Assembly: GCF_001829785.1 (NCBI RefSeq)
Contig: NZ_MICF01000010.1
Direction: 5' to 3' (one strand)
DNA: 64,000 bases
Source of the DNA: Sulfurimonas sp. RIFOXYD12_FULL_33_39
GTDB taxonomy: Bacteria; Campylobacterota; Campylobacteria; Campylobacterales; Sulfurimonadaceae
Shown: positions 17,331 to 53,366 of the stretch, piece after piece
How positions within the stretch are numbered: the first letter of the stretch is position 1
How the letters are laid out: each line of letters starts with the position of its first letter
The notes under the pieces: generated by a model
Database searches by the model: none
Seen by the model: only the letters and a program-made list of their open reading frames with translations
What the model was told of the DNA's origin: nothing
Made by a program: the position numbers and the translations under genes

Positions 17331-17370
17331 TTTTATTTTCTCCTATTTTTTTGAAAATTCTATAATCCAA

Positions 17371-18045: not shown

Positions 18046-18392
18046 AATTTACACTCTCCCGTTTGTGATGATTTTTTTAATTTCGGAATTTCGATATCAA
18101 GATGTCTTATCTCTTGCAGAGCTTCTGTTCTAAAGCGGTCAAGCGGACAACGCACAGAGTAGTACGCCCAAGTACCGCATCTCTCGACACGCAGAAATCC
18201 AGCCTCTTTTAATATTTTGAGATGGCGAGATAGACGCGACTGAATCATCTCAAGAGAGTTCTGCAAATCGCAAACGCAAGTTTGTCCATGCTCATCCAAA
18301 AAGCGCAGTATCAGAACTCTCGTTTCGTCGTTTAGTGCGGCAACACTTTTTAAAAAGATATCCATAACGAACTCCTTTTTGTTGAATTGCAA
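18042..18392 (-). CDS. arsR: ArsR/SmtB-family transcriptional repressor
   Basis: 116 aa wHTH with a metal-site-like CVCDL motif. 4-nt overlap with arsC. Confidence 0.85.
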   Translation of the reverse strand: MQFNKKEFVMDIFLKSVAALNDETRVLILRFLDEHGQTCVCDLQNSLEMIQSRLSRHLKILKEAGFLRVERCGTWAYYSVRCPLDRFRTEALQEIRHLDIEIPKLKKSSQTGECKL

Positions 18393-23442: not shown

Positions 23443-23771
23443 TGGCATACATAATAGGTCTAATCATAGTAGGGCTATTTTTTTTAGCCCTTCACTACTT
23501 TACCGAGTTTTCGCGTCAACAAAAAGTTATTGTAACGACTCTGGTTTTAGGTGTTGTTTTATTTGCAATAGCTTTTAATACTTACAGCAACTCTCAAAGA
23601 GACAAAATGCTTGACGCAGTTTTGAAGTTTAATCAACATAAGACTATTACATGTAAAGGTGTGAGCGTTAATGATGAAAATTTTACTCTAAGCATAGGAA
23701 CTTATACTTTCATAGGTAAAGAGAACACTCCATACTTTTCCCAAATGATTAGTGCTTCTACATGCGAATAG
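23442..23771 (+). CDS. hypothetical membrane protein
   Basis: 109 aa with two predicted N-terminal TM helices. Confidence 0.5.
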   Translation: MAYIIGLIIVGLFFLALHYFTEFSRQQKVIVTTLVLGVVLFAIAFNTYSNSQRDKMLDAVLKFNQHKTITCKGVSVNDENFTLSIGTYTFIGKENTPYFSQMISASTCE

Positions 23772-25978
23772 AAAATAGTTCCAAGGTTGATTTAATTATC
23801 AATCAACTTGATTTAAACGAGCATATAAACACATTTAAACAATTTTTTTCACGTGATGACTCTCTTTATATGGAAGGTGATCAGGAGCTTCATTACCGCT
23901 ATATAAAAGCTCTTGATTCTATCGAGTTTAAATCGCCTCCAAAAGTTGCCGACTTTACAAATATAAAACTTCATCTAAAAAAACAGGGCGTATTGCAGTT
24001 TGAGCAGATTTTTGAGATAGTAAAAGTTGTCCGTTATTTTCGCTACTTTAAAAACAAAAATCTACAAGGCATTATCGGCGAATGGATGGATAAGTTTGTT
24101 ATTGAACCGAAATTTATGGAAGTTGAAAAGTACTTTACGCATGATGGCAAATTTGAAGAGAATCTTGATGAAGTTCTTTTTAATCTCGGTGCTAGAATAA
24201 GAGAACACAAAACCAACATGAGCGGCTCTTTAAAAAGGCTGATTTCAAGCCAAAAACTCTCATCTTATATGATTGATACTCAAGTTCACTTTATAAATGA
24301 CGAAGAGTGTCTTTTGGTTCGCGGCGGTTTTAATCATGTACTAAAAGGTGCAGTTATCGGCAGAAGTTCTAGCGGCGGTTTTTATGTCTCGCCCGATAGT
24401 ATATTAAAAGCAAAAGAGCAGATACGCTACATTAACCAAGAAAGAGACGCCATCTTTTACACCTACGCAAAAGAGTTCTCATCAAAACTCTCTGAACTTT
24501 TGCCTTTTATAAACTTTATCGACAAAGAGTTTGGCAAATTTGACAACTATCAAGCAAGAGTTTTGTTTGCAAAAAGTAAAAATCTCCAACTTATAAAATC
24601 TAAAAAAGATTCAAAAATTATTTTAGAGGGTTTTATACACCCTGCTCTTCACCATGCAAAACCTATACATGTAGATTTTTCTAAAAATATCTTAATGATT
24701 ACCGGTGTAAATGCAGGCGGAAAGACCATGCTTTTAAAGTCAATCCTCTCTGCGGCTTTTATGGCAAAATATATTATTCCGATGAAACTAAACGAGCATA
24801 AATCACATGTAGGGAATTTTAAAAATATATTAGCAATTATCGACGACCCTCAAAACGTAAAAAATGACATCTCTACCTTTGCAGGACGTATGCAGGAGTT
24901 TTCTAAGATATTTGAGTATAAAGAGGCTCTTGTCGGGGTTGACGAGATAGAACTCGGAACGGACAGCGACGAAGCTGCCGCACTCTTTAAAGTGATACTT
25001 GATGAACTTATAATGCGTGGACAAAAGATTGTCGTTACTACCCATCATAAACGTCTTGCGGCTTTAATGGCAGACCGTGACGATGTGGAGCTTATGGCGG
25101 CGATTTATGATGAGCAAAATAGAGTGCCTACTTATGAGTTTATGCATGGCATCATCGGAAAAAGCTACGCATTTGAGACGGCAAGCAGATACGGTATCTC
25201 AAACAAAATCGTAAACGAAGCAAAAGTAGTTTACGGCGATAACAGCGAAAAGCTAAATATACTCATAGAAAGAGGCTCACAGCTAGAGCGCGAATTAAAA
25301 CAAAAGCATAGAACGGTTGATGAAAAACTAGAAGAGCTAAGGCTAAAAGAGCTTGACTTAAAAGAGCAAAGACAAAAGGTTTATGAAGAGCTTCAAAAAG
25401 AAAAAGCCGTGTTAAAAGAGAGCTACGAAATAGCGATAAACGAAGCAAAACAAGCCGCTCGTGCAGGTGATGCAAAAGCAATTCACAGAGCTATGAATAA
25501 AGCGAACAAAAATTTACCAAAAGAGAAACCGCCGCAAAGTCTTCCTATAAAATTCAGCGTAGGCGAAAGCGTAAAATATCATAGCAAAAAAGGCGTAATA
25601 GTTGCTATGAAAGATGAAAAAGAGGCTATCGTAGAGGTTGACGGAATGCGTGTGCGTGTTAATACATCACAACTAAAACCGACTGAGACCATAAAACAAA
25701 AACCACGAACTGACGTAAATCTACAAGTACAAAAAAGAGCAGGACTAAAATGCGACCTTCACGGCATGAGAGCCGAAGAGGCAACGGAAGTTTTGGATAA
25801 ATTTATCTCCGATGCGCTTATAAACGGCTGGGATGAAGTGATAGTCTATCACGGTATCGGAACAGGCAAATTATCCTACGCTGTTAAAGAGTTTCTAAAA
25901 GCCCATCCGAGAGTTAAAAAGTTTGAAGATGCACCGCAACACATGGGCGGTTTTGGTGCAAAAGTAGTGACTCTGTAA
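23762..25978 (+). CDS. mutS2: endonuclease MutS2 (MutS ATPase plus C-terminal Smr domain)
   Basis: 738 aa with the Walker A GVNAGGKTMLLK, the MutS signature, a coiled-coil region and an Smr domain (CDLHGMRAEEA...). Confidence 0.92.
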   Translation: MRIENSSKVDLIINQLDLNEHINTFKQFFSRDDSLYMEGDQELHYRYIKALDSIEFKSPPKVADFTNIKLHLKKQGVLQFEQIFEIVKVVRYFRYFKNKNLQGIIGEWMDKFVIEPKFMEVEKYFTHDGKFEENLDEVLFNLGARIREHKTNMSGSLKRLISSQKLSSYMIDTQVHFINDEECLLVRGGFNHVLKGAVIGRSSSGGFYVSPDSILKAKEQIRYINQERDAIFYTYAKEFSSKLSELLPFINFIDKEFGKFDNYQARVLFAKSKNLQLIKSKKDSKIILEGFIHPALHHAKPIHVDFSKNILMITGVNAGGKTMLLKSILSAAFMAKYIIPMKLNEHKSHVGNFKNILAIIDDPQNVKNDISTFAGRMQEFSKIFEYKEALVGVDEIELGTDSDEAAALFKVILDELIMRGQKIVVTTHHKRLAALMADRDDVELMAAIYDEQNRVPTYEFMHGIIGKSYAFETASRYGISNKIVNEAKVVYGDNSEKLNILIERGSQLERELKQKHRTVDEKLEELRLKELDLKEQRQKVYEELQKEKAVLKESYEIAINEAKQAARAGDAKAIHRAMNKANKNLPKEKPPQSLPIKFSVGESVKYHSKKGVIVAMKDEKEAIVEVDGMRVRVNTSQLKPTETIKQKPRTDVNLQVQKRAGLKCDLHGMRAEEATEVLDKFISDALINGWDEVIVYHGIGTGKLSYAVKEFLKAHPRVKKFEDAPQHMGGFGAKVVTL

Positions 25979-26100
25979 TGAAGAAAACTCCCAAAAGTGG
26001 AAAATTTATACTAGAATAAATGCCTTGGACTTTAAATTAGCTATAATAATTAAAAATTAATTATTAATTAAATATGTTAATTAAAAGGTTACAGCAAGTA

Positions 26101-27657
26101 ATGGCAAAAGAAAAAAATCAAAAATCTATGGAAGAGACTCTTTGGGAAAGTGCAAATAAACTTAGAGGCTCAGTTGAATCAAGTGAATACAAGCATATTG
26201 TTCTGGGACTTATTTTTTTAAAGTTTGTGAGTGATACTTTTGAAGAGAGAAGAGAAAAGCTAATAGCCGAAGGCAAAGAGGCATTTGTGGATATGGTGGA
26301 GTTTTACACTATGGAAAATGTTTTTTATCTTCCTACTGAATCACGATGGTCATACATAAAACAAAACGCAAAACAAAATGATATCGCCCTCAAAATAGAT
26401 ACAGCCCTAGCAACTATCGAAAAAAACAATCCTAGCCTAAAAGGTGCATTGCCTGATAATTACTTCTCAAGACTTGGTCTTGATGTGAGTAAACTTTCAT
26501 CTCTCATAGATACTATCAACAACATCAATACCATAGAAGACAAAGGGCATGATGTGGTTGGACGAGTATATGAATACTTCTTAAGTAAGTTTGCAATCGC
26601 TGAGGGTAAAGGAAAAGGAGAGTTCTACACGCCAAAATCAATAGTCAATCTTATATCAACCATGATAGAGCCATACAAAGGCAAGATATATGACCCCGCA
26701 TGTGGAAGTGGCGGTATGTTTGTGCAGTCTGTAAAGTTTATAGATGCTCACAATGGAAACAAAAAAGATATCTCGGTTTACGGTCAAGAATATACAGCCA
26801 CTACCTACAAACTTGCCAAAATGAACTTAGCCATCAGAGGAATATCTGCAAATCTTGGAGATGTACCTGCCGATACATTTGCAAAAGACCAACACAAAGA
26901 CCTTAAAGCCGACTTCATCATGGCAAATCCACCTTTTAATCAAAAAGATTGGAGAGGTGTAAACGAACTACTAGACGATGCAAGATGGGCAGGATACGAT
27001 GTACCGCCGACATCAAACGCCAACTACGGATGGATACTAAACATGGTATCAAAACTCTCCGTAAACGGTGTAGCTGGATTTGTCTTGGCAAATGGGGCGT
27101 TAAGCGGTGGCGGCGAAGAGTATAAAATACGAAAAAAGCTCATTGAAAATGATATTGTAGAGGCGATTGTTATTTTACCTAGAAACCTTTTTTATACGAC
27201 AGATATTAGTGTGACTCTTTGGATACTGGGTGCCAATAAGAAGCTTAGAATTTTTGAGCAAAATGGCAAAATAAAAACTCATCGAGATAGAACAAATGAG
27301 ATACTTTTTATGGATTTGAGACAAAAAGGTGTGCCATTTGAAAAGAAATTTACACAGTTTGATGATGAAACAGTAGAAGAAGTAACTGATACTTATCATG
27401 TTTGGCAAAGTGATAAAGAGGCTTACAAAGATATACCTGAATACTGTTATAGTGCATCAAAAGATGAAGTGAGAGCAAAAGATTACTCACTTGTTCCTAG
27501 CAAATACATAGAGTTTGTAAACAGAGATGAAAATATAGATTTCGATACAAAGATGCAAACACTTCAAGGTGAATTTGCAGAGCTTTTAAAAGAGGAAGAA
27601 CAATCAAAAAAAGAGCTACTAAAAGTATTTGAGGAACTTGGTTATGCCATCAACTAA
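26101..27657 (+). CDS. hsdM: type I restriction-modification system methyltransferase subunit
   Basis: The ORF runs from 26074, and the ATG at 26101 gives the typical HsdM N-terminus. AdoMet motif DPACGSGGMF and catalytic NPPFN are present. Confidence 0.93.
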   Translation: MAKEKNQKSMEETLWESANKLRGSVESSEYKHIVLGLIFLKFVSDTFEERREKLIAEGKEAFVDMVEFYTMENVFYLPTESRWSYIKQNAKQNDIALKIDTALATIEKNNPSLKGALPDNYFSRLGLDVSKLSSLIDTINNINTIEDKGHDVVGRVYEYFLSKFAIAEGKGKGEFYTPKSIVNLISTMIEPYKGKIYDPACGSGGMFVQSVKFIDAHNGNKKDISVYGQEYTATTYKLAKMNLAIRGISANLGDVPADTFAKDQHKDLKADFIMANPPFNQKDWRGVNELLDDARWAGYDVPPTSNANYGWILNMVSKLSVNGVAGFVLANGALSGGGEEYKIRKKLIENDIVEAIVILPRNLFYTTDISVTLWILGANKKLRIFEQNGKIKTHRDRTNEILFMDLRQKGVPFEKKFTQFDDETVEEVTDTYHVWQSDKEAYKDIPEYCYSASKDEVRAKDYSLVPSKYIEFVNRDENIDFDTKMQTLQGEFAELLKEEEQSKKELLKVFEELGYAIN

Positions 27658-28702
27658 AATAGTTACAACAGAATATAAAAAGTGGTTACATGAGATAAAA
27701 CAAAAATTTCAAAGCTCACAGATAAAGGCTTCAATTGCTGTCAATACTACTTTGCTTGAATTTTACTGGAATCTTGGAAACGATATAGTTGAAAAACAAA
27801 AGGTGCATAAATGGGGAAGTGGTTTTTTAGAGCAATTAAGTAGAGATTTGCTCGAAGAGTTCCCAGATATAAAGGGATTTTCTCTCTCAAATTTACAATA
27901 TATAAGAAGATGGTTTTTGTTTTATACAAATAGTGGAACGAGTTGTTGTGCAAATGAAATTGAAAAAATGGAACAGCTTGTTCCACAATTGTTTTTGATA
28001 CCATTGGGGCATAATTTTGTAATAATATCAAAGTGTAAAGATATAGATGAAGCCCTATATTATGTAAACAACACACTCAAACATGGCATAAGTAGAAATG
28101 TACTTATCCATCAAATAGAAACTAATCTTTACGCAAGAGATGGCAAAGCTATCACAAATTTTGAAACCACTTTGCCACCTTTACAATCAGACTTGGCAAA
28201 AGAGATTACAAAAGACCCCTATAATTTTGACTTTTTGAGTATGAGAGAAAATTATCAAGAAAAAGAGCTAGAAGATGCACTATGTGAAAATATCACAAAG
28301 TTTTTACTTGAACTTGGTAGTGGCTTTGCTTTTGTAGGAAGACAATACAAGCTCCTTGTAGGCGGAGATGAGTTTAAAATAGATTTACTTTTTTACCATA
28401 TCAAACTCAAATGTTATGTAGTAGTTGAGTTAAAAGCAGTAGAATTTAAGCCAGAGTTTACTGGTAAACTGAGCTTTTATACTTCGGCAATAGACGGCGA
28501 ATTAAAAAGTGCAAATGATAATCCAACTATCGGGATACTCATTTGCAAATCAAAAAACAACATAGTAGTAGAATATGCACTCAAAGATATAAACAAACCT
28601 TTGGGAATTAGTGAATATGAACTAACTGAAATTCTTCCAAAAGAGTATAAATCATCACTTCCAACTATCGAGGAAATAGAGGCAGAGTTAGATGAGAAGT
28701 AA
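27644..28702 (+). CDS. DUF1016/YhcG-type PD-(D/E)xK nuclease-fold protein
   Basis: The track starts at TTG 27629. The ATG at 27644 has a GAGGA RBS. The C-terminal core IDLLFYH...VVVELK fits the D...ExK motif. Overlaps the hsdM stop. Confidence 0.75.
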   Translation: MPSTKIVTTEYKKWLHEIKQKFQSSQIKASIAVNTTLLEFYWNLGNDIVEKQKVHKWGSGFLEQLSRDLLEEFPDIKGFSLSNLQYIRRWFLFYTNSGTSCCANEIEKMEQLVPQLFLIPLGHNFVIISKCKDIDEALYYVNNTLKHGISRNVLIHQIETNLYARDGKAITNFETTLPPLQSDLAKEITKDPYNFDFLSMRENYQEKELEDALCENITKFLLELGSGFAFVGRQYKLLVGGDEFKIDLLFYHIKLKCYVVVELKAVEFKPEFTGKLSFYTSAIDGELKSANDNPTIGILICKSKNNIVVEYALKDINKPLGISEYELTEILPKEYKSSLPTIEEIEAELDEK

Positions 28703-29891
28703 TTATAAAAAACTTGGTCAATTTATTCAGCAAGTCAGTGTAAAAAACAGTGATTTAACAGTTGATAATCTCTTGGGTGTAAGTATTACAAAAAAGTTTA
28801 TTCCATCTATCGCAAATATCATTGGTACAGATATGACCATATATAAAATAGTCCAAAAAGGTCAATTTGCTTATGGACCAGTAACTTCAAGAAATGGGGA
28901 TAAAATCTCTGTAGCATTGCTTGAAAATGATGAAGCTATTGTTTCTACTTCATATACTGTATTTGAAATTATTAACACAAATGAGTTATTGCCAGAATAT
29001 CTTATGATGTGGTTTAGAAGAGAAGAGTTTGACAGATATGCAAGATATATGTCTCATGGTAGTACAAGAGAAGCTTTTGGATGGGAAGAGATGTGTGATG
29101 TAGAACTTCCAGTTCCTTCACTTGAAAAACAAAATGAGATAATTAAAGAGTACCACACCATCACAGACAGAATCAAACTCAATGAACAACTAAATCAAAA
29201 GCTAGAAGATACCGCACAAAGTATCTATAAAGAGTGGTTTGTAAATTTTGAGTTTCCACACAACTTTAGTCATTCTGAACTTGATTCAGAATCTAATATA
29301 AAACCATATAAATCAAATGGTGGCGAAATGGTTTATTGTGATGAGTTAGAGATGGAAATACCTAATAATTGGCAAATAGTTGAACTTATTGATATGTTAG
29401 ATATAAAATATGGGAAAGACTATAAACATCTTAACAATGGGGAAATACCTCTTTATGGTTCAGGTGGAATAATGAAATATGTTGATAAATATTTATATTC
29501 AGGCGAATCAATATTAATACCTAGAAAAGGTTCATTAAACAATATTATCCACATAAATCAAGAGTTTTGGACTGTAGATACAATGTTTTACTCGATTATA
29601 AAAACTAAATTCTCAGGAAAATATCTTTTTCATATTTTAAAAAGTATTGATTTTTATAGTTTAAATGTTGGTTCAGCAGTTCCAAGTATGACTACAAATC
29701 TTTTAAATGGATTAAAAAATCTAAAACCTGAAAATTATGTTCTTGAAAATTTTGAGAAAATATTGATACCAATTTTTAAACATAAAAGTATTTTAAAAGA
29801 TGAAAATGAAACTTTAGAAAGATTAAAAGAAGTTTTACTTTCAAAAATTGCAACTATTGACGAAAATGAGAAAGTGGTAATAAAAAAATGA
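28692..29891 (+). CDS. hsdS: type I restriction-modification system specificity subunit
   Basis: 399 aa with two dissimilar target-recognition domains separated by a central conserved helix (LPVPSLEKQNEIIKEY...) plus a C-terminal conserved helix. Confidence 0.85.
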   Translation: MRSNYKKLGQFIQQVSVKNSDLTVDNLLGVSITKKFIPSIANIIGTDMTIYKIVQKGQFAYGPVTSRNGDKISVALLENDEAIVSTSYTVFEIINTNELLPEYLMMWFRREEFDRYARYMSHGSTREAFGWEEMCDVELPVPSLEKQNEIIKEYHTITDRIKLNEQLNQKLEDTAQSIYKEWFVNFEFPHNFSHSELDSESNIKPYKSNGGEMVYCDELEMEIPNNWQIVELIDMLDIKYGKDYKHLNNGEIPLYGSGGIMKYVDKYLYSGESILIPRKGSLNNIIHINQEFWTVDTMFYSIIKTKFSGKYLFHILKSIDFYSLNVGSAVPSMTTNLLNGLKNLKPENYVLENFEKILIPIFKHKSILKDENETLERLKEVLLSKIATIDENEKVVIKK

Positions 29892-30829
29892 TAAGTACAT
29901 ATACTACACATGCTGGAACTACTATTACTTTTGATGTTGTAGTTGATGATATATTACAAAACTTATCAACTAATAATATTGACCCAAATAATAAAGCACT
30001 ATTAAGTTTGGTAAATGGATTTGAAAGTGGCAAATGGAGACGACAACAATTTGAACAATTTATTTGGAATAACATTAAAGATACAGCACTTTCTCAAACA
30101 GAAAAAGAGGCTTTAATCGGTGATGAACAAACCATATTAACAAAATCAGCTAAAAATTTACGATTATTAGAAGGTGATGAAAAAGGTGGTGAAATTGGAG
30201 AAATATTACTTTACGGCATAATGAAAAAATATTATTCTGCTCTTCCTGTTGTGCCAAAAATATTTTATAAACAAAATAGAAATGATTATGCAAAAGGTGC
30301 TGATAGCATCCATATAACACTTAATACAGATGGTACATTTTCACTTTGGCTTGGGGAAGCTAAATTTTATAATAGTATTAAAGATACAAGATTGGATTCA
30401 ATTATTGAGTCTGTTCACAATATATTCATAGATGATAAGCTTAGAAAAGAACTAAGTATTGTGACATCGCTTAAAGATTTAGATTTATTCATTGAAGATA
30501 AAAAACTACTCAAAGATATTAAAGATAAACTAGCAGATGGCATCTCACTTGATGATATTAAGCAACAATTACATGTTCCAATTCTTATTCTTCATCAATG
30601 TGAGATTACTGCAAGCAATACAGAAAGTTTTGATGAATACAAAAAAAAGATGAGGGAAGAACATATTAAAAAAGCGGAAATTTTTATGAAAAAACAAGAT
30701 ATCAAGCTAAATAGTGTCTATATGTACAAAGAAATAAAATTTCATTTAATATTATTTCCAGTTCCCAACAAATCTGAGCTTGTAGATAGATTTTATACAA
30801 AAGCAATGTTTGAAAGAGATGAAGATTAA
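29888..30829 (+). CDS. hamA: Hachiman HamA-like protein (DUF1837-type PD-(D/E)xK fold)
   Basis: 313 aa with GEIGEILLYG...GADSIHI...LWLGEAKFY, which fits an E...D...ExK nuclease-like core. Immediately precedes an SF2 helicase. ATGA overlap with hsdS. Confidence 0.6.
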   Translation: MISTYTTHAGTTITFDVVVDDILQNLSTNNIDPNNKALLSLVNGFESGKWRRQQFEQFIWNNIKDTALSQTEKEALIGDEQTILTKSAKNLRLLEGDEKGGEIGEILLYGIMKKYYSALPVVPKIFYKQNRNDYAKGADSIHITLNTDGTFSLWLGEAKFYNSIKDTRLDSIIESVHNIFIDDKLRKELSIVTSLKDLDLFIEDKKLLKDIKDKLADGISLDDIKQQLHVPILILHQCEITASNTESFDEYKKKMREEHIKKAEIFMKKQDIKLNSVYMYKEIKFHLILFPVPNKSELVDRFYTKAMFERDED

Positions 30830-32916
30830 TGTATATTTTTAATCAATGCAAAGAAATAAGTAATCAACTTGACCTAAACAATGAGGACAAGGCTCGAAAT
30901 CAATTAATTTTATTACTTGATTATATGAAAAATAACAATATTGAATATTCACATATAGTTAATCATTTGATTCGCCTTACAGGTTTATATCCTTACATCG
31001 ATACAGATAATGCGATACTAGAAGATAGGCTTATTTATGATATGTTTAAGGTTGACACAGGAAGTGATGAACCATTAACATTGCATAGAGAGCAATCAAA
31101 CTTATTGAAAAAGCTTTTAAATGGAAAAAACCTTGCAATAAGTGCTCCAACAAGTTTTGGTAAAAGCTTTGTAATTGATTCTTTTATATCTATAAAAAAA
31201 CCAAATAACATATTAATCATAGTTCCAACTATAGCTTTATCAGATGAAATCAGAAGAAGACTTTACAAAAAGTTCTCATATGAATATAAAATTATTACAA
31301 CGGCAGATGTAGAACTTTCCGATAAAAATATTTTTATATTTCCTCAAGAAAGAGCTATTGGTTATATAGATGCAATAAAAAACTTAGATTTATTAGTAAT
31401 AGATGAATTTTATAAAGCAAGTTTTGATTTTGACAAAGAGCGTTCATCTACACTTCAAAAAGCAATTCTAAAGCTTGGAAAAAAAGCAAATCAAAAATAC
31501 TATTTAGCTCCAAATATTGAAAAATTATATTCTAACTTATTTACTGAAGGTATGGAATTTATACCATTAACTTTTAATACGGTTTATCTATCAAAACATG
31601 ACACATATAAAGAAATTACATTAAGTAATAAAAATGCAAAACTTATAGAAATTCTCAATCAGCATAAAGATATAAAAACGTTGATATATGCAGGAACTTT
31701 TCCTGAAATTGACACTGTATCTGAATTAATTAAAAAAAGTATCCCAAATAGTGATTCCAAAAAATTAAAATTATTCTCAAGTTGGTTGGCTACAAATTAC
31801 GAAAAAAACTGGAACTTAACCAAAGTTGTAAGAAAAGGCATGGGGATTCATAACGGAAGATTGCATCGTTCATTAAGTCAGATACAAATAAAAATGTTTG
31901 AGGATGAAGATGGACTGAACAATATCGTTTCTACTTCTTCAATCATAGAAGGTGTGAATACATCCGCACAAAATGTAATTGTTTGGAAAAATTATAGATT
32001 AAATAGTTTCACATACAAAAATATAATAGGCAGAAGTGGAAGAATGTTTAAGCACTTTGTTGGTCATATTTATTTGTTTGTTAAACCACCTAAAGATGAT
32101 GAAATACAATTAACAATAGAGTTTTCTGAAAATACGATTCCTGACGTCGATGAAGTTGAGTATAAAGATGATTTAACTAAAGAACAAATCACAAAAATAA
32201 TTGAGCATAAAGAAAATATGTACAATATACTTGGCAAAGAAATCTATGAAAGGTTAATTAAAGAGAATTCATTTCAATCAAGTAGAGAACTTATTGAGAA
32301 AATAGCTATTGATATGAAGAATAATCCTGATACATGGAATGGTTTATCACACTTAAACAGTACTCCAAATAAATGGGATAATCCATTATATAAAGCTATT
32401 AATTTACAGGCTGGAAAATGGGATATTAAACATGGCGATTTTGTTTATTTTACTAAGATTCTATCTCAAAATTGGAATAAAAGCATTCCTGAATTATTAG
32501 CTTATCTTTCTAAACATGCTATCAAAATAGATATGTTTTTTCTACTGGAACGAAATGCTACATTTAAGCTATCAGCATTGCTAGGAGATATAAATACCTT
32601 ACAAAAGGTTATTTTTAAAAATAAGAATGTTGATATTTCGCCATTTATCTCTAAAGTTTCTCATGCTTTTTTGCCATCAGTAGTTTATCAATTGGAAGAA
32701 TATGGTTTGCCGAGAATGTTGTCAAAAAAAATTCATATTGCAAAAGTTATTAATTTTGAAGATGAAACATTAAATATACACTCAGCAATAAATATATTTA
32801 ACAAACTTAGCATTGAATATATTAAAAGTAAAGTAGTAACTTTCGATGAATTTGATTTATATATTTTGGATTATTTTTATGATGGAATATCTAATAAAAA
32901 TGTGAATAAAGGCTAG
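30829..32916 (+). CDS. hamB: Hachiman HamB-like SF2 helicase
   Basis: 695 aa with motif I APTSFGKSF, motif II LLVIDEFY and motif VI IGRSGRMFKH. The start overlaps the hamA stop (TAATG). Confidence 0.7.
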   Translation: MYIFNQCKEISNQLDLNNEDKARNQLILLLDYMKNNNIEYSHIVNHLIRLTGLYPYIDTDNAILEDRLIYDMFKVDTGSDEPLTLHREQSNLLKKLLNGKNLAISAPTSFGKSFVIDSFISIKKPNNILIIVPTIALSDEIRRRLYKKFSYEYKIITTADVELSDKNIFIFPQERAIGYIDAIKNLDLLVIDEFYKASFDFDKERSSTLQKAILKLGKKANQKYYLAPNIEKLYSNLFTEGMEFIPLTFNTVYLSKHDTYKEITLSNKNAKLIEILNQHKDIKTLIYAGTFPEIDTVSELIKKSIPNSDSKKLKLFSSWLATNYEKNWNLTKVVRKGMGIHNGRLHRSLSQIQIKMFEDEDGLNNIVSTSSIIEGVNTSAQNVIVWKNYRLNSFTYKNIIGRSGRMFKHFVGHIYLFVKPPKDDEIQLTIEFSENTIPDVDEVEYKDDLTKEQITKIIEHKENMYNILGKEIYERLIKENSFQSSRELIEKIAIDMKNNPDTWNGLSHLNSTPNKWDNPLYKAINLQAGKWDIKHGDFVYFTKILSQNWNKSIPELLAYLSKHAIKIDMFFLLERNATFKLSALLGDINTLQKVIFKNKNVDISPFISKVSHAFLPSVVYQLEEYGLPRMLSKKIHIAKVINFEDETLNIHSAINIFNKLSIEYIKSKVVTFDEFDLYILDYFYDGISNKNVNKG

Positions 32917-32922
32917 ATAAAT

Positions 32923-33885
32923 ATGAATCATTATATCCCACCCTATACGATAACCTCAAAAATACTAAAACTTTCAACACAAATAAGTGAAGAACTCACA
33001 AAACTTCAATTTGCTGGACTATCAAAAGTAAATCCAATGTTGAGAAAAAAGAACCGTATCAAAACTTTGGCAGGTACGCTGGAAATAGAGGGTAATTTTT
33101 TAGGTGAAGAGAAAATCACCGCAATCTTAGATGGTAAAACGGTTTTAGGAACTGTGAGAGAATTAGCAGAAGTTCAAGGGGCTATAAAAGCGTATGAAAA
33201 ACTCGATGAGTATAGATTTGATGAGTTAGATGATTTGCTACATGCACATAAAATTTTGATGAGTGAGATACTAACATCTGCCGGAAGTTTTAGAAGTATC
33301 AATGTTCAAGTAGGGGGACATATAGCTCCACAGCCGAGCATTATAAACGACTTGATGATAAATCTTTTTTCTTGGCTAAAAAATAGTGATGAACATATAC
33401 TTTTAAAATCTTGCATATTTCACTATGAATTTGAGTTTATCCATCCATTTAATGATGGAAACGGAAGAATCGGAAGACTTTGGCAAAGTGTGATTTTAAA
33501 TAGTTTCAACCCGATTTTTTCACTTCTCCCAACTGAAAGTATAGTTAGAGATTATCAAGAGCAATACTATAGTGCGATTGAAAACTCTACTCAGATGGGT
33601 GAAAGTACGCCATTTATAGAGTTTATGCTTGAGATGATTTTAAAATCAATGCAAAATACTTTAAAAAGTGACCAAGAAAGTAACTATAAAAGTGACCAAA
33701 AAGTTTTAGCACTTATGAAAGAAGATAGTAAAATCACTATTTATGAACTGATGGAAAAACTCTCTATGAGTGAATCAGGGATAAAAAAAGTAATTAAAAA
33801 GCTAAAAGATGAAGATATTATAAGTAGAGTTGGAAGTCTAAAATCTGGTCATTGGGAAATACTATCAGAGATGGGAATAAAATGA
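32923..33885 (+). CDS. fic: class II Fic-domain AMPylase with C-terminal wHTH (SoFic-like)
   Basis: 320 aa with the Fic motif HPFNDGNGRIGR, an N-terminal inhibitory-helix motif TLEIEG ((S/T)xxxE(G/N)) and a C-terminal wHTH-like tail. Confidence 0.9.
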   Translation: MNHYIPPYTITSKILKLSTQISEELTKLQFAGLSKVNPMLRKKNRIKTLAGTLEIEGNFLGEEKITAILDGKTVLGTVRELAEVQGAIKAYEKLDEYRFDELDDLLHAHKILMSEILTSAGSFRSINVQVGGHIAPQPSIINDLMINLFSWLKNSDEHILLKSCIFHYEFEFIHPFNDGNGRIGRLWQSVILNSFNPIFSLLPTESIVRDYQEQYYSAIENSTQMGESTPFIEFMLEMILKSMQNTLKSDQESNYKSDQKVLALMKEDSKITIYELMEKLSMSESGIKKVIKKLKDEDIISRVGSLKSGHWEILSEMGIK

Positions 33886-36800
33886 GTAAATTTACAGAAG
33901 AAAAACTTGAACTGGCATTTATAGAGTTGCTTGGTGAACAAGGCATACACTATCAGTATGGTAAAGATATAGAACGAAATGAGAGTGAAGTTCTGCTCAA
34001 AGATGATTTAAAAGAGTATCTAAAAAATAGGTATAAAAATGAAAATATAACTGAAAGTGAAATAACTCAAATTGTGCGAAAACTTGAATCATATCCATCA
34101 AGTGATTTATACGACAGTAACAAATCTATAACGAAACTAATATCTGATGGATTTATCTTTAAAAGAGAAGATGCAAAAGCGAAAGATATACATGTAGAGT
34201 TTATAAATTATGAAAATGTAGAAAAGAATAGTTTTAAAATAGTAAATCAACTTGAAATAGTTGGCTATGAAAAACGAATTCCTGATGGCATACTTTATAT
34301 CAACGGCTTACCGTTGGTTGTATTTGAATTTAAAAGTGCCATAAGAGAAGAAGCAACTATTCATGATGCTTTTGTACAACTCACTACAAGGTACAGAAGA
34401 GATATTCCCGAGCTTTTTAAATACAATGCCTTTTGTGTCATAAGCGATGGAGTAAACAATAAGGCAGGTTCGTTTTTTGCACCCTATGAATCTTTATACG
34501 CTTGGAGAAAGATTACGGGCAATGAAGTAGATGTAAATGGCATAGCTTCCATGCACTCTATGATTCAAGGGATGTTTAATAAAGAGAGATTGGTAGATAT
34601 CATCCATAACTTTATCTATATACCTGACAAATCAAGAAAAGAGGAGAAGATAGTTTGTCGTTATCCTCAATACTACGCTACTAGAAAACTTTATGAAAAT
34701 ATAAAACTCCATCAAAGGGAACCTTCTTTAGAAAAACCGCAAGGCGATGGTAAAGGCGGTACATATTTTGGTGCTACCGGTTGTGGTAAGAGTTTTACAA
34801 TGCTTTATCTAACTCGTATGCTCATGAAAAGTGTTCATTTTTCTAGTCCTACTATCATACTTATTACCGATAGAACAGATTTGGATACACAGCTAAGCTC
34901 TCAATTTTCCAATGCAAAAGGTTTTATAGGGGATGATGGAATAGTAAGTGTTGAAAGTAGAGAAGATTTAAGGGCAAGACTCAGAGGGCGAGAGAGTGGC
35001 GGTGTTTTTCTTACAACTATCCATAAATTTACGCAAGATTTAGAAATACTTAGCGATAGAACAAACATCATAGTCATATCTGATGAAGCTCACAGAAGTC
35101 AAATCAACTTAGACCAAAAAGTAAAAATAACAAAAATTGGAGTTAAAAAAACTTACGGTTTTGCAAAATATTTGCATGATTCTTTACCTAATGCTACTTA
35201 TGTCGGTTTTACGGGAACTCCGATAGATGCCACGCTTGATGTTTTTGGGGATGTGATCGACAGCTATACTATGACTGAATCCGTAAGAGATGAAATAACA
35301 GTACGAATCGTATATGAGGGAAGAGCCGCAAAAGTATTGCTAAATAACTCAAAACTGCATGAAATCGAAGAATATTATGCAGAGTGTGCAAATGCAGGTG
35401 CTAGTAAATATCAAATAGAAGATAGCAAAAAAGCAATGGCAAATATGAATGCCATTCTTGGCGACCCCGATAGAGTAAAAGCTGTAGCAAAAGATTTTGT
35501 ACAGCATTATGAAAAAAGAGTAAGTGAAGGTGCAACGCTTAAATGTAAAGCACTCTTTGTATCAAGCAGCAGACCAATTGCTTACGCACTTTATAAAGAA
35601 CTAATAGCTTTAAGACCAGAGTGGAATGAAAAAAAAGTATGCAATGAGGGAATTGAACTAACCGATAAAGAAAGAAAAGAGATACTTCCACTTGAAAAAC
35701 TCAAAATGATTATGACTAGAAACAAAGATGATGAAAAAGAGTTGTATGATTTGTTGGGTACAAAAGAGTACAGAAAAACACTTGATACACAGTTTAAAAA
35801 TGAAAAATCAAACTTTAAAATAGCTATCGTTGTAGATATGTGGCTCACAGGATTTGATGTTCCATTTTTAGACACCATCTACATAGATAAGCCTATACAA
35901 GAACATAACCTTATCCAAACAATCTCAAGAGTCAATAGAAAATACCAATCAAAAAAGAAAGGTTTGGTAGTCGATTACATCGGTATAAAAACAGCTATGA
36001 ATAAAGCTCTTAAACAATTTTCAAATATCGATAGTCAAAACTTTGAAGATATCAATGCTTCTATTGTGGTTGTAAAAGATCAACTTGATTTACTCTCTAA
36101 ACTTTTTTATAAGTTTGATACCAGTTTATATTTTAAAGGTAGTCCAACAGAACAATTAAGATGTTTAAATCTTGCTAGTGAATATGTCCAACTAACCAAA
36201 GAGCTAGAAGCTAGATTTATGTATATCGTTAAAAGACTAAAATCTGCTTATGATATATGTTGCGGAAGCGAAGCTTTTACTCAAAATGAAAAAGATCATA
36301 TACACTTTTATTTAGCAATTCGCTCTATCGTAATTAAACTAACTCGTGGAGATGCTCCTGATACAGCTCAAATGAATGCAAAAGTCACAAAAATGATAAC
36401 AGAAGCTTTAAAAAGTGATGGGGTAGAGGAGATATTTAAACTGGGAAGTGACAATGAATCACAGATAGATATTTTTGATGAAGATTACATCAATAAGATA
36501 GATAAGATAAAGCTACCAAATACAAAAATAAAACTACTGCAACAACTATTAGCCAAAGCATTAGAAGAGTTTAAAAAAGTAAACAAGATTAAAGCAGTAG
36601 ATTTTTCAAAAAAATTCACTGCACTTGTTGAAAAGTACAATGAACGCAAAGAAGAAGATGTACTTGTAAGTGGTGTGTTAGAAGATTTTACGGATGAGAT
36701 TATAGACCTCTATCATGCCCTTAAAAAAGAAAAAGAGTCTTTTGCTGATATGGGTATAGATTTTGAGGAAAAAGCTTTTTATGACATTTTAAAAGCCATT

Positions 36801-37046
36801 TCACATAAGTATGATTTCGCTTATCCTGAAGATAAATTGATTTTACTGGCAAAAGAAGTGAAAAAAGTTGTTGATGATAAATCAAAATATACGGATTGGA
36901 ATGTGAGAGATGATATCAAAGCAGAACTCAAAGTTGATTTGATAATGCTTCTAGCTAAACATGGTTATCCACCAATCACAAAGGATGAAGTGTTTAAAGA
37001 GATATTTGAACAAGCTGAAAACTTTAAGAAGTATAACTATAGGTAA
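33882..37046 (+). CDS. hsdR: type I restriction enzyme endonuclease/translocase subunit
   Basis: The track starts at TTG 33852. The ATG at 33882 overlaps the fic stop (ATGA). It has an N-terminal PD-(D/E)xK (PDGILY...VVFEFK), Walker A GATGCGKSF and the DEAH box ISDEAHRSQ. Confidence 0.93.
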   Translation: MSKFTEEKLELAFIELLGEQGIHYQYGKDIERNESEVLLKDDLKEYLKNRYKNENITESEITQIVRKLESYPSSDLYDSNKSITKLISDGFIFKREDAKAKDIHVEFINYENVEKNSFKIVNQLEIVGYEKRIPDGILYINGLPLVVFEFKSAIREEATIHDAFVQLTTRYRRDIPELFKYNAFCVISDGVNNKAGSFFAPYESLYAWRKITGNEVDVNGIASMHSMIQGMFNKERLVDIIHNFIYIPDKSRKEEKIVCRYPQYYATRKLYENIKLHQREPSLEKPQGDGKGGTYFGATGCGKSFTMLYLTRMLMKSVHFSSPTIILITDRTDLDTQLSSQFSNAKGFIGDDGIVSVESREDLRARLRGRESGGVFLTTIHKFTQDLEILSDRTNIIVISDEAHRSQINLDQKVKITKIGVKKTYGFAKYLHDSLPNATYVGFTGTPIDATLDVFGDVIDSYTMTESVRDEITVRIVYEGRAAKVLLNNSKLHEIEEYYAECANAGASKYQIEDSKKAMANMNAILGDPDRVKAVAKDFVQHYEKRVSEGATLKCKALFVSSSRPIAYALYKELIALRPEWNEKKVCNEGIELTDKERKEILPLEKLKMIMTRNKDDEKELYDLLGTKEYRKTLDTQFKNEKSNFKIAIVVDMWLTGFDVPFLDTIYIDKPIQEHNLIQTISRVNRKYQSKKKGLVVDYIGIKTAMNKALKQFSNIDSQNFEDINASIVVVKDQLDLLSKLFYKFDTSLYFKGSPTEQLRCLNLASEYVQLTKELEARFMYIVKRLKSAYDICCGSEAFTQNEKDHIHFYLAIRSIVIKLTRGDAPDTAQMNAKVTKMITEALKSDGVEEIFKLGSDNESQIDIFDEDYINKIDKIKLPNTKIKLLQQLLAKALEEFKKVNKIKAVDFSKKFTALVEKYNERKEEDVLVSGVLEDFTDEIIDLYHALKKEKESFADMGIDFEEKAFYDILKAISHKYDFAYPEDKLILLAKEVKKVVDDKSKYTDWNVRDDIKAELKVDLIMLLAKHGYPPITKDEVFKEIFEQAENFKKYNYR

Positions 37047-37084
37047 TTTTGTAATAAAAATAACTATTTGTGTTAAAATTGCTC

Positions 37085-37126
37085 ATGAACAATGGCGGTT
37101 TCGGTGCTAAAATCGTTACACTATAA
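37085..37126 (+). pseudogene. degenerate duplicate of the mutS2 3' end
   Basis: atgaacaatggcggtttcggtgctaaaatcgttacactataa translates to MNNGGFGAKIVTL*, against HMGGFGAKVVTL* at the mutS2 C-terminus. About 29 of 38 nt are identical to 25940-25978. Confidence 0.6.
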
Positions 37127-37196
37127 AATACTTCAAGTTTATATCTTTCAATTGCGATATAATTCAAGACTTATTTTAATATAGAGAGAAAATATA

Positions 37197-37772
37197 ATGA
37201 AAAAAATCCTACTTTACTTATCACTTATTGGTATATTATCAACATCATCTTTTGCAGAAGATACAAAAGCTATGGATGTATATAACCAAATGCAGTCGTT
37301 ACTAAAAGGCGAGTGGTCACTATCCGAAGAAAAAAAACAAATCGATACAACAGATGCTTATAAAGACAAAGCAATAGTTCATTTGGTAGGAACGGATGCT
37401 ACTGCGATTGCATACAAAGTTATCGGAAGAGGTGCTACTTTTCAAGAAGATCTTTTACCAAATACAAAAAAAGAGATGGTAACAATGTATCACTGTAACA
37501 ACTTTCATGACTGTACTGAATTAAAAGCAACGCACTATTGTGCCAAACAAAATCAACCGCAGTTTATATTAAATAGCAAAGAAACTACTGAAAATAAAAT
37601 TGTATTTGACTGTGATATGAAAACCAAACTATGTAACTCGGATGAGGATCATGTACATCAAATCATACATGAAATATCCGAGAATGGAAAACATCTTAAA
37701 TCATCGTATTTAGGCTGGAAAAATCAAAAACCAAATAAAAAACATTCAATCTATCATTTTGATAAAAAATAA
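37197..37772 (+). CDS. hypothetical secreted Cys/His-rich protein
   Basis: 191 aa with a signal peptide (ILSTSSFAED) and several Cys and His residues in the C-terminal half. Confidence 0.5.
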   Translation: MKKILLYLSLIGILSTSSFAEDTKAMDVYNQMQSLLKGEWSLSEEKKQIDTTDAYKDKAIVHLVGTDATAIAYKVIGRGATFQEDLLPNTKKEMVTMYHCNNFHDCTELKATHYCAKQNQPQFILNSKETTENKIVFDCDMKTKLCNSDEDHVHQIIHEISENGKHLKSSYLGWKNQKPNKKHSIYHFDKK

Positions 37773-37781
37773 ATTTATAAA

Positions 37782-39026
37782 ATGAAAAAAACAGCAATCA
37801 TCGGCGGCGGCGCTTCAGGGCTTTTATGTGCTATTTTTTGTGCAAAAAATGGGATTAGTGTAGATATTTTTGAGCAAAACTCTAAATGTGCAAAAAAGAT
37901 TTTGGTATCCGGAAACGGTCGTTGCAACATTACAAACACAAATCTTACATGTAACGATTATTTCTCACAAAATCCGCTCTTTATGGATTATGCATTAAAA
38001 GAGTTTGGCTTTAGAGAGTTTGAGAAATTTTGTCAAAGTATCGGACTTTTACTAGATGTTAAAGAAGACGGACGCGTTTATCCACTTAGCAATGAAGCCA
38101 AAAACGTAGCCTCTTTGCTAATAAATTATGCTAAAAATATCGGTGTAAATTTTCATACCGATACAAAAATAACAGATATAAAAAAACTGCTTCAAGAGTA
38201 TGATGCGGTTGTCGTAGCAACAGGCTCGCAGGCGGCGTCTCATCTAGGCGGAAATGAAGACGGACTTGCCTTTGCCAAAGAGTTCTCTCACAATATCATC
38301 CCGACCTACCCTTCACTCGTTCAGCTCCATCTTGACTCTAAAGTCATAAAAAAGATGAGCGGAGCAAAGATAGAGGGTGAAATAACACTGCTTGTAAATA
38401 ACAAAAAAGAGCTTACACCCCAAGGGCACTTCTTACAGGGCGCATGTAAAGGCGATATCCTCTTTACAGATTATGGGGTATCTGGCTTTGCAGTTTTGGA
38501 TATATCGCAAGGTGCGAGTGTTGCTTTGATGGAGCATTCACATGCGCCCTGTAAGAAGTGCCCTTGGGGTGTAAGCATATCTATAAATCTTCTGCCAAAT
38601 TTTAACGCTCAAAAACTCTCATCACATATAAGCTCCATAGCTATAAATATGCCTGATTTTACAATTGCTGATATTTTAACAGGGCTTCTTCCAATTAAAA
38701 TCGTTAACGGAATTTTAGACGATTTGGAGATTTCAACCTCTACATGTAGCGAAGAAATAGGCACAAAACTAAGCAAAAAGATAGCCAATCGGATACTCGA
38801 CTGGCGTTTTGAAGTAAAGGAGACTCACGGCTTTCGTCATGCAGAGGTCGCAGGCGGCGGAGTCGATACGACTGAGATAAACCCAAAAACTTTTGAATCG
38901 CTCAAGCAAAAAAACCTCTACTTCTGCGGAGAAGTATTAGACGTAGTAGGCAAAAGAGGCGGCTATAATTTCGCCTTTGCATGGGCTAGCGGATACGCAG
39001 CTGCGAAGGCTATAAGCAGAGGCTAA
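37782..39026 (+). CDS. HI0933/BaiN-like FAD-dependent oxidoreductase
   Basis: 414 aa with the dinucleotide motif IIGGGASGL, GNGRCNITN and the C-terminal GGYNFAFAWASG typical of the family. Confidence 0.85.
   Translation: MKKTAIIGGGASGLLCAIFCAKNGISVDIFEQNSKCAKKILVSGNGRCNITNTNLTCNDYFSQNPLFMDYALKEFGFREFEKFCQSIGLLLDVKEDGRVYPLSNEAKNVASLLINYAKNIGVNFHTDTKITDIKKLLQEYDAVVVATGSQAASHLGGNEDGLAFAKEFSHNIIPTYPSLVQLHLDSKVIKKMSGAKIEGEITLLVNNKKELTPQGHFLQGACKGDILFTDYGVSGFAVLDISQGASVALMEHSHAPCKKCPWGVSISINLLPNFNAQKLSSHISSIAINMPDFTIADILTGLLPIKIVNGILDDLEISTSTCSEEIGTKLSKKIANRILDWRFEVKETHGFRHAEVAGGGVDTTEINPKTFESLKQKNLYFCGEVLDVVGKRGGYNFAFAWASGYAAAKAISRG
38411..38576. repeat. perfect 37-bp inverted repeat (arms 38411-38447 and 38540-38576) with a 92-nt spacer, inside the flavoprotein CDS
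   Basis: The arm gcttacaccccaagggcacttcttacagggcgcatgt and its exact reverse complement were read directly from the sequence. Confidence 0.95.
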
Positions 39027-39457
39027 ATCTTATTTTCGATATTTGAAATATGACCGTTATTATCATGATAGATGGTTATTAGTTGCTCATCCCTTGACTC
39101 TTTTAGCTTTGTACTATCTACTTTAAAATAGTTAGCATACTCATCAAACTTATAGATAAAATGCTCACTTGGAGCGACATGTCGATTTAACCATGATAAT
39201 ATAAACAAGATAGTAGGTGTTGCAACCAACATGATTAGAGCATGTTCGACTGTAACTGCTGATATTTCATCAAAAATTACTTTTGATATTTCATCTACAT
39301 TTGCATCTAAAGTAACAATGTTATAAAAAACTATAAGTAGCGGTTTCCACAAATATATCCAACCAACCCACAGAAGAATTGTCACTATATCCCAGCCGAT
39401 TTTTTTTGAAAAAGGCATCTCGTGGCGTTTGTTAATAATTAAGGTTTTCTTCTTCAT
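39023..39457 (-). CDS. pgaD: PgaD-like small membrane protein
   Basis: 144 aa with two TM helices, immediately downstream of pgaC. Assigned by position and topology only. Confidence 0.5.
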   Translation of the reverse strand: MKKKTLIINKRHEMPFSKKIGWDIVTILLWVGWIYLWKPLLIVFYNIVTLDANVDEISKVIFDEISAVTVEHALIMLVATPTILFILSWLNRHVAPSEHFIYKFDEYANYFKVDSTKLKESRDEQLITIYHDNNGHISNIENKI

Positions 39458-39459
39458 GT

Positions 39460-53112: not shown

Positions 53113-53115
53113 TCT

Positions 53116-53364: not shown

Positions 53365-53366
53365 AC

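Follow-up and report, generated by a model that had tools for sequence, protein, structure and literature searches.

A type I restriction-modification operon of a groundwater Sulfurimonas with embedded Hachiman, Fic and DUF1016 genes

The stretch of DNA analysed here, hereafter the window, is a 64,000-nucleotide (nt) segment of contig NZ_MICF01000010.1 (assembly GCF_001829785.1) of Sulfurimonas sp. RIFOXYD12_FULL_33_39, and contains a seven-gene operon in which a type I restriction-modification (R-M) system is interspersed with a DUF1016/YhcG gene, a Hachiman pair (hamA and hamB, together hamAB) and a Fic gene. The locus belongs to a known pattern, that of defence cassettes embedded in type I R-M operons, and the explanation favoured, with a probability of about 0.72, is that the type I operon acts as a carrier for exchangeable and independent defence layers that would be expressed from one weak polycistronic mRNA, the slot directly after hsdS being occupied by a particular HamAB lineage.

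The seven open reading frames (ORFs) lie in the same orientation between positions 26074 and 37046 and have no internal stops. Their order is the following:

26074-27657, + strand: hsdM, type I methyltransferase subunit, 527 amino acids (aa); profile matches and intact NPPF and DPACGSG motifs
27644-28702, + strand: DUF1016/YhcG gene of the PD-(D/E)xK nuclease family, between hsdM and hsdS; profile matches, ORF open from TTG 27629
28692-29891, + strand: hsdS, specificity subunit with two target-recognition domains, 399 aa; profile matches
29888-30829, + strand: hamA, Hachiman effector nuclease (DUF1837), 313 aa; profile matches and motif alignment
30829-32916, + strand: hamB, Hachiman superfamily 2 (SF2) sensor helicase, 695 aa; profile matches and AbpB match
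32923-33885, + strand: fic, Fic-domain protein with a C-terminal winged helix-turn-helix (wHTH), 320 aa; profile matches and motifs
33882-37046, + strand: hsdR, type I restriction/translocase subunit, 1054 aa from ATG 33882; profile matches and motifs

The gene order, the identities and the tight junctions proposed in a first-pass annotation of the same DNA were borne out by the coordinates and the profile matches. In particular, hsdM and the DUF1016 gene overlap by 14 nt if the latter starts at ATG 27644 and by 29 nt if the first possible TTG (27629) is used, while the DUF1016 gene and hsdS overlap by 11 nt; the hsdS/hamA junction is an ATGA (4-nt overlap) and the hamA/hamB junction a TAATG (1-nt overlap). 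A gap of 6 nt precedes fic, and fic and hsdR are joined by an ATGA when ATG 33882 is taken as the start of hsdR, which lies 3,990 nt beyond the hsdS stop.

The R-M subunits are recognized by established profile models. HsdM matches N6_Mtase (PF02384, 3e-97) and HsdM_N (PF12161, 2e-24) of Pfam and is 83-90% identical to its Sulfurimonas and Arcobacter relatives; HsdS matches the PADLOC Specificity_I model (5e-76) over residues 67-385 and the Pfam Methylase_S family in two stretches, its variable domains being 30-65% identical to those of relatives and the conserved 3' end of the gene (29823-29860) 95% identical to one backbone locus among the pooled loci L001-L046. HsdR matches PADLOC REase_I (E=0), TIGR00348 above its cut-off (4e-143) and, for its N-terminal nuclease domain, SF2 ATPase motor and C-terminal domain, the Pfam families HSDR_N (7e-35), SWI2_SNF2 (1e-55), T1R_D3-like and T1RH-like_C (2e-92), has intact GCGKS and DEAH motifs, and is 85-89% identical to full-length relatives of the Sulfurimonas group and up to 91% over a partial match in locus L078. 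With full-length ORFs and intact motifs, the R-M operon appears functional.

The embedded genes are identified with comparable clarity. The helicase pair, named hamA-like and hamB-like in the first-pass annotation from the letters of the sequence, fits the corresponding PADLOC profiles at 1e-121 and 1e-225. HamA covers the full PF08878 profile (1e-56) and its residues of D-E(x)K type (GADS...GEAKF) are invariant in an alignment with five relatives, nested as well as stand-alone; a phmmer comparison of HamA with the PDB sequences gave no match to any solved structure. HamB matches its profile end to end with intact FGKS, DEFY and GRSGR motifs; its nearest solved structure is Escherichia coli AbpB (8zue_B, 3e-52), with Walker A, DEFY and motif VI aligned, and matches to Hel308 are also found, in keeping with an SF2 helicase of the Ski2/Hel308-like kind. 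The Fic protein shows the Pfam Fic domain (3e-22) with the core motif HPFNDGNGRIGR at residue 174, an N-terminal inhibitory TLEIEG of class II type at residue 52 and a wHTH (HTH_24, residues 257-300). It matches the PADLOC SoFic model at 2e-41 and reaches 59 bits against the 550-bit cut-off of the NCBIfam SoFic equivalog NF046030, so that it is described as a Fic-wHTH relative of SoFic-like architecture and not filed as SoFic. Finally, the DUF1016 protein matches DUF1016_N (3e-34, 118 bits) and YhcG_C (1e-65, 221 bits), for which the Pfam cut-offs are about 33 bits, and PADLOC PDC-S02 at 6e-155; the defence role of this family is a prediction.

The position of hamAB is shared by all its close relatives. 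In the 12 loci examined with a HamB at least 69% identical (the window, L081, L092, L094, L084, L086, L106, L105, L088, L107, L095 and L096), hamA is always located directly after hsdS, overlapping or abutting its stop codon, and hsdR lies downstream of hamAB in all ten nested loci whose contig is long enough. These loci are distributed over three backbones: the window type; the L081 type, whose HsdM and HsdR are 46% and 32% identical to those of the window; and the L084 type, which has a 782-aa HsdM (32% identical) and an HsdR (25%) devoid of the T1RH-like C-terminal domain. Across the backbones HamA is 75-89% and HamB 69-84% identical, whereas HsdM is only 32-46% and HsdR 25-32% identical; the 12 nested loci represent only three independent backbone associations. 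The nucleotide homology between the window and the nested hamAB loci extends from 29881-29894, around the hamA ATG at 29888, to 32888-32909, close to the hamB stop at 32916, and since it is bounded by the start of hamA and the stop of hamB, hamAB moves as an exact two-gene cassette. The genes accompanying it vary: fic in the window; a pair of 202-aa and 271-aa ORFs, with or without GmrSD and Fic, in the L081 type; and, in the L084 type, mostly rhuM, replaced by a truncated rhuM with an HTH-M78 peptidase in L086 and L106 and by nothing in L096.

In contrast, all the HamB relatives examined with identities of 61% or less belong to stand-alone pairs, in which hamA has an ATG start and its own leader; they include Sedimentisphaerales L089 (61%), the metagenomic L108 and L109 (59%), Pseudomonas L090 (57%), a Rhizobium plasmid, L102 (51%), Rhodovastum L103 (31%) and the Citrobacter AbpAB of L104 (32%). 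The HamAB module is therefore autonomous in kind. In the nested loci hamA starts within the hsdS stop region, with TTG in L081, L092 and L094 and GTG in L084 and L086. A search of plasmids retrieved only distant Hachiman pairs (identity of 51% or less), all stand-alone, and a metagenome scan with HamB returned 11 loci that are mostly redundant with L081. The characterized systems, Hachiman of ECOR31 (Tuck et al., Cell 2024) and E. coli AbpAB, share with the window clade the DUF1837 nuclease, the SF2 helicase, the adjacency of the two genes and the catalytic motifs; they are stand-alone pairs, while the window clade overlaps hsdS and lacks an upstream region of its own. In the literature searched, including the mechanistic papers on Hachiman and Pez-Ham, no description of a Hachiman nested in an R-M system was found. 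The best explanation of this distribution is a HamAB lineage specialized in the slot after hsdS, which would move between unrelated type I operons.

Further features were observed around these pairs. The 202-aa and 271-aa ORFs (L081:8861-10281, L092:12121-13538, L094:6130-6405) have no Pfam match, always follow hamB in the L081 type and may be a Hachiman accessory pair or separate cargo. Operons of the L084 type (L084:1-2573 and 17066-18190; L105:1-3316) adjoin phage- or satellite-like genes (Sipho_Gp157, Rad52, DUF2958, YagK_YfjJ_C), together with a tyrosine integrase in L084, and are probably carried by an integrative element. An additional gene, for a fused methyltransferase-specificity protein, is found upstream of hsdM in L084, L086, L096 and L106 but not in L105. 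In the latter locus, from Aliarcobacter butzleri (L105:11095-14032), the hsdR that follows hamAB-rhuM is frameshifted into ORFs of 690 aa and 299 aa next to A7 and T6 homopolymer runs, which could be due to phase variation, decay or sequencing error, and hamAB is intact. As regards the stand-alone pairs, on the Citrobacter freundii plasmid (L104:1-9127) a large DEAD/DEAH-box helicase gene and two DUF262 (GmrSD-like) genes precede abpA-abpB on the same strand, and in Pseudomonas (L090:8073-12084) a DUF3223 gene lies just downstream of hamAB on the opposite strand.

The variability of the interval in which hamAB is inserted was evaluated in a survey of hsd loci, one genome per species, that yielded 80 loci with HsdR 56-91% identical to that of the window, 53 of which have a complete interval from hsdM to hsdR. 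The distance from the end of hsdM to the start of hsdR in these 53 loci ranges from 569 to 9,245 nt (median 4.5 kb); cargo, defined as ORFs of at least 100 aa, occurs in 43 of them, with three or more ORFs in 25, and 129 of the 135 cargo ORFs are co-oriented with hsd. The cargo is diverse and consists mainly of singleton clusters. The commonest families are GajA-like ATPases (best E 4e-203), with matches to PtuA, AriA and OLD models as well, Schlafen-AlbA2, RhuM, GmrSD, Fic, reverse transcriptases, AbiEii and TIR proteins. In near relatives (L001, L006 and L053) the hsdS-hsdR slot is filled by a complete ABC-3C system comprising the effector, MC3 or MC4 and a DUF3732/SMC-type ATPase, and the slots of the nearest relatives also hold a superfamily 1 helicase (L003), an AAA_21 ATPase (L004), RhuM and Schlafen/AlbA-HATPase proteins. 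The ABC-3C genes are found at L001:3054-9061, L006:6300-10004 and L053:2779-6255, and several adjoining cargo ORFs, such as those of 426 aa and 348 aa in L001 and of 685 aa in L004, have no Pfam match.

Since 43 of the 53 loci carry cargo, the nesting of whole defence systems in the hsdS-hsdR slot is normal for this hsd family. The first-pass annotation had regarded a whole Hachiman pair between hsdS and hsdR as unusual, a judgement that was not sustained, multi-gene nesting being the norm, a published concept and, in 12 of 12 loci, the rule for this HamAB clade; its general statement that type I loci often carry embedded accessory ORFs agrees both with the survey and with Payne et al. (2024, bioRxiv 10.1101/2024.01.29.577857), who described embedded defences ("guilt-by-embedding") in type I R-M, BREX and DISARM operons. 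As in the window, their embedded defences are co-oriented genes located between the subunits of a system and variable between related hosts, and the candidates PDC-S02 (DUF1016) and PDC-S04 (Fic-like) derive from this approach (bioRxiv 10.1101/2024.01.29.577857). The hamAB pair has the same properties, lying co-oriented between hsd genes, varying among close backbones and having autonomous relatives elsewhere. What differs is the confinement of a whole HamAB clade to the slot after hsdS in three type I families, with boundaries at the start and stop codons; the main text of Payne et al. does not mention Hachiman, and none of Hachiman, HamA, SoFic and PDC-S02 appears in the parts of the supplements that were accessible. 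Genes between hsdR and hsdS have also been mentioned for type I loci of Campylobacterota (PMC11411939), and the rlo genes of Campylobacter jejuni type I loci are likewise cargo in a type I operon.

Within the surveyed family hamA and hamB are absent from all 80 related hsdR loci, as searched with tblastn and local hidden Markov models, and hamAB is an optional addition to this R-M system and not one of its integral parts. Conversely, the four nearest relatives (L001, L003, L004 and L051) have a fic gene (55-84% identical) immediately before hsdR, and fic is therefore part of the local backbone, not variable cargo. The recurrence of hamAB and fic in related loci, to which the first-pass annotation had linked its idea of interacting layers, is thus found for fic and fails for hamAB. 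The nearest backbones also lack a DUF1016 gene between hsdM and hsdS, which overlap there by 8 nt; in fact, the nucleotide homology with these backbones breaks off at 27653 and resumes at 28692, skipping the DUF1016 gene, and hamAB is skipped as well. The backbone formed by hsdM, hsdS and fic-hsdR would be the carrier of exchangeable defence cassettes, and the window would differ from the nearest Sulfurimonas backbones by two additions, DUF1016/YhcG between hsdM and hsdS and hamAB in the slot between hsdS and fic-hsdR. As a separate observation, contigs of the same aquifer, from DNA as well as from RNA, part from the window sequence at the centre of hsdS (29269-29302) and at the fic/hsdR junction (33811-34232), a sign that hsdS variants co-exist and that a second fic-hsdR locus or strain, related to this one, is present.

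The operon is in turn part of a horizontally acquired defence island of a groundwater Sulfurimonas; the region occurs in groundwater metagenomes. The features that delimit the island are:

23762-25978, + strand: mutS2, 738 aa, with MutS_V and a C-terminal Smr domain (Pfam); core gene and left flank
25987-37781, + strand: whole 11.8-kb insertion relative to the empty site (synteny, homology breaks, X1 contig and GC content at third codon positions, GC3)
26039-26073, + strand: hsd leader, with a candidate -10 box TATAAT at 26042-26047 in an AT-rich palindrome (motif search)
37089-37126, + strand: relic of a second mutS2 3' end (...NGGFGAKIVTL*), 76% identical to 25941-25978, with TAA in the same register
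37197-37772, + strand: orf191, small protein, inside the insertion and outside the hsd operon

The MutS2 of the window is 86-92% identical to Sulfurimonas MutS2 proteins. In the two closest relatives examined, L110 and L111 (MutS2 91% and 86% identical), mutS2 directly abuts a HI0933-like gene with no spacer, in a conserved order of aminotransferase, 167-aa ORF, Mur ligase, 109-aa ORF, mutS2 and HI0933-like gene, to which L110 adds pgaDCB. The nucleotide homology of the window with both relatives stops at about 25986 and picks up again at 37781/37782, so that the window carries an insertion of 11.8 kb, consisting of the hsd operon, the 38-nt relic and orf191. In addition, DNA run X1 contains a related strain of greater abundance (depth 69.5), in which a contig of only 1,781 nt joins 25965 to 37776; this co-occurring strain thus lacks the hsd block. 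The GC3 values are 0.15-0.19 in hsdS, hamA and hamB, 0.23-0.30 in hsdM, DUF1016, fic and hsdR, and 0.34-0.36 in the flanking core genes. The mutS2/HI0933-like junction is an insertion hotspot, with empty sites at L110:11160-11260 and L111:11160-11260 and some 1.6 kb of different sequence at this junction in the co-occurring strain.

The mutS2 relic, whose left counterpart is the last 38 nt of mutS2 (25941-25978), is a genuine coding remnant: five of the six codons that differ from the mutS2 end among its 11 codons up to the stop are synonymous, a six-frame translation of the window contains the peptide GGFGAKIVTL* at these two places only, and the MutS2 proteins of the Sulfurimonas relatives most often end in ...GGFGAKIVTL. 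Its presence shows that the junction was struck repeatedly or that the block came from a genome in which it had the same placement. The possibility that the repeat is an att site was rejected, because in the comparison with the empty site its right-hand copy is internal to the insert, before orf191. An island mobilized by an integrase was likewise discarded, as the repeat does not stand at both ends and Pfam and profile scans detected no tyrosine or serine recombinase among the eight ORFs of the insert; the two outer ends share a short similarity, ATGAARAAAAC, too weak to be interpreted. As for orf191, it encodes a Cys/His-rich protein with a signal-peptide-like hydrophobic N-terminus (MKKILLYLSLIGILSTSSFA); it has no Pfam match and occurs neither in the empty-site relatives nor in any locus fetched.

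Expression of the locus was followed in four metatranscriptomic runs of the same study, which hold about half of the 31-mers of hamB and whose contigs were mapped on positions 23500-39500. RNA contigs cover the entire operon at depths of 1.4-9, against 25-55 for mutS2 and about 26 for orf191, and since the DNA depth of X1 is flat at 21-23 across the region, the RNA profile is not due to DNA carry-over; the transcription of orf191 exceeds that of the hsd operon by a factor of about 3-20. Single RNA contigs span hsdM-DUF1016-hsdS (26866-29615), hamB-fic (32874-33111) and fic-hsdR (33768-34194 and 33703-33916). The co-transcription proposed in the first-pass annotation is therefore upheld as far as the whole block is transcribed at low, even depth with three segments spanned, and falls short at hsdS-hamA, which RNA contigs leave unspanned. 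A promoter just upstream of hsdM is suggested by the candidate -10 box of the leader, and the homology to the Sulfurimonas hsd backbone begins at 26039. Consensus scans found 75 promoter-like sites against 70 expected from shuffles and 10 terminator-like sites against 7, figures that are uninformative in AT-rich DNA; the operon has no intergenic space for a terminator. An internal hsdR promoter was considered for a bump of RNA depth at 33742-34075 and led to no conclusion, the loose contig ends at 33812 and 34001 showing cross-mapping from a related locus.

On the favoured explanation, all seven genes would be expressed at a low level from one polycistronic mRNA starting just upstream of hsdM, possibly with read-through from mutS2, and their translation would be coupled through the overlaps of stop and start codons. 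The type I R-M system would act first by cutting unmodified incoming DNA. In published Hachiman, HamB keeps HamA inactive on intact double-stranded DNA, and free single-stranded DNA (ssDNA) ends or damage release HamA, leading to abortive DNA clearance (PMC12278908), while AbpAB is triggered by the phage single-stranded DNA-binding protein or by host DNA damage (PMC10732053). By analogy, HamAB would be a backstop, sensing DNA damage or free ssDNA ends and clearing DNA abortively through the released HamA nuclease, and Fic-wHTH and DUF1016 would be additional effectors. Embedding would provide co-inheritance, shared weak expression and stabilization by the R-M system, each module remaining independent in its activity.

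Some points weigh against this explanation. The Logan contigs are unstranded and poor for quantification; none of those from the four RNA runs crosses hsdS-hamA, and the hamA-hamB junction is only touched, by a contig starting at 30827, so that an internal start there is possible. Moreover, the RNA contig 25927-26418 crosses from mutS2 into hsdM, which makes read-through possible and the assignment of the promoter uncertain. The activity of the modules in this organism is deduced from their genes. Finally, the strict position after hsdS in 12 of 12 loci, in some of them with overlapping TTG or GTG starts, exceeds what plain independent cargo would lead one to expect, and a dependency of HamAB on its host operon may exist.

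One form of such a dependency, which is tentative and to be regarded as possible, is regulatory piggy-backing without biochemical interplay: the clade would have no promoter or ribosome-binding signals of its own, and the hsd promoter together with reinitiation at the hsdS stop would fix a low dose of a potentially self-toxic HamAB. The hamA starts that overlap the hsdS stop in every nested locus, the ATG starts preceded by an own upstream region in the stand-alone relatives, and the low RNA depth of the operon (1-9) compared with its neighbours (25-55) are in line with this proposal, as is the autoimmunity risk of Hachiman (PMC12278908). A Streptococcus Hachiman, Pez-Ham, likewise shares its promoter and operon with another module, an arrangement thought to tune expression and to balance cost and protection (PMC13064477); there, however, the partner is the PezAT toxin-antitoxin system, not a type I R-M system, and the modules stand side by side and are not nested. 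On the other hand, tight overlaps are common to all the cargo of these operons and not restricted to hamAB, and the hsdS-hamA junction is uncovered in the RNA data.

A functional coupling of restriction and Hachiman, in which either the translocation and cleavage products of HsdR (DNA ends and resected ssDNA) would load HamB and trigger HamA, along the lines of the feeding of HamAB suggested in the first-pass annotation, or the type I complex would keep HamAB in a latent state released by phage anti-restriction proteins, is compatible with the biochemistry in the first of these versions but unlikely. Its precedent is PrrC of the EcoprrI hsd locus, cargo inside a type I operon like the HamAB clade, which is physically held latent by the R-M complex. 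PrrC is found almost exclusively embedded in type I R-M (bioRxiv 10.1101/2024.01.29.577857), whereas the more distant HamAB relatives are autonomous stand-alone systems and the link of HamAB with R-M is one of genomic linkage alone (12/12). A second parallel is TgvAB of Vibrio cholerae, a two-gene system in a type I R-M operon with complementary targets, whose protection is 10-100-fold better in the whole cluster than alone (PMC11411939); it differs in cargo family and in mechanism, being based on modification-dependent restriction and not on a DNA-damage-sensing abortive nuclease-helicase, and the window carries two more embedded modules than its cluster. Coupling would also fit the activation of published HamAB by free ssDNA ends and DNA damage (PMC12278908), the constant position of hamA at the hsdS stop on three backbones sharing 25-46% identity, and L096, where hamAB is the sole gene pair between hsdS and hsdR. 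Nevertheless, the nested HamA and HamB do not differ from their stand-alone relatives in length or motifs and have no extra domain, and the same hsdR family is found with many other cargoes or none, hamAB being present in 0 of 80 related loci. The first position would also follow from fic-hsdR and rhuM-hsdR being fixed units, since the place directly after hsdS would then be the only one available, and the associations are effectively three. Furthermore, if restriction products fed an abortive nuclease, a cell already rescued by restriction would die, and in A. butzleri L105 hsdR is frameshifted with hamAB intact.

In its strictest form, argued by analogy, the Campylobacterota HamAB clade with HamB identities of at least 69% would be an obligate, PrrC-like partner of type I R-M, controlled by its HsdS-coupled position or by the HsdM2S/HsdR complex, and would fire on restriction-made ends or in response to phage anti-restriction proteins. 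This proposal is improbable; if true, it would be the first Hachiman wired into another immune system.

Finally, a decaying or inactive R-M locus accumulating insertions, or a chimeric metagenome assembly, at which the 4 kb between the restriction subunit and hsdM and hsdS, the heterogeneous GC of the block and the metagenome source might hint, is highly improbable and largely refuted, as the seven ORFs are full-length against the profiles with intact motifs, all seven genes are transcribed and the same architecture recurs in isolates and metagenome-assembled genomes. As for chimerism, an 11,884-nt contig of the independent DNA run X1 matches 25922-37805 with zero mismatches, hsdS-hamA is spanned by a contig of sample X8 and hsdS-hamA-hamB by one of X10, and a chimeric assembly was rejected since several samples independently yielded the same contiguous sequence free of mismatches. 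A joint from 29338 to 36589, also seen in runs X9 and X10, has one side of only 21 nt and is too short for interpretation.

Elsewhere in the window, positions 45001-47000 have a GC content of 0.50-0.54 compared with the genome average of 0.35; Rfam gave no matches over the whole window, including no rRNA at 45001-47000. A long stretch of GC 0.23-0.33 at 53001-64000, with one spike of 0.43 at about 60-61 kb, may be another acquired region.

The reading of the locus as a type I carrier of exchangeable defence layers offers a compact (11 kb), transcribed and natural example of four defence modules in one operon, and brings to light a Hachiman lineage that in every sampled case lies immediately behind hsdS, in operons of three unrelated type I R-M families. 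This post-hsdS clade, the codon-precise boundaries of its cassette and the mapped empty site appear to be undescribed in the literature searched. The finding raises the question of whether embedding serves co-inheritance and dosage control or a synergy between restriction and abortive sensing, and that of the mechanism by which cassettes are swapped in the hsdS-hsdR slot with gene-boundary precision. As regards annotation, many cargo ORFs of the surveyed hsd loci have no match in the profile libraries, which makes the hsdS-hsdR interval of this HsdR family a rich source of new defence genes and worth mining for them.

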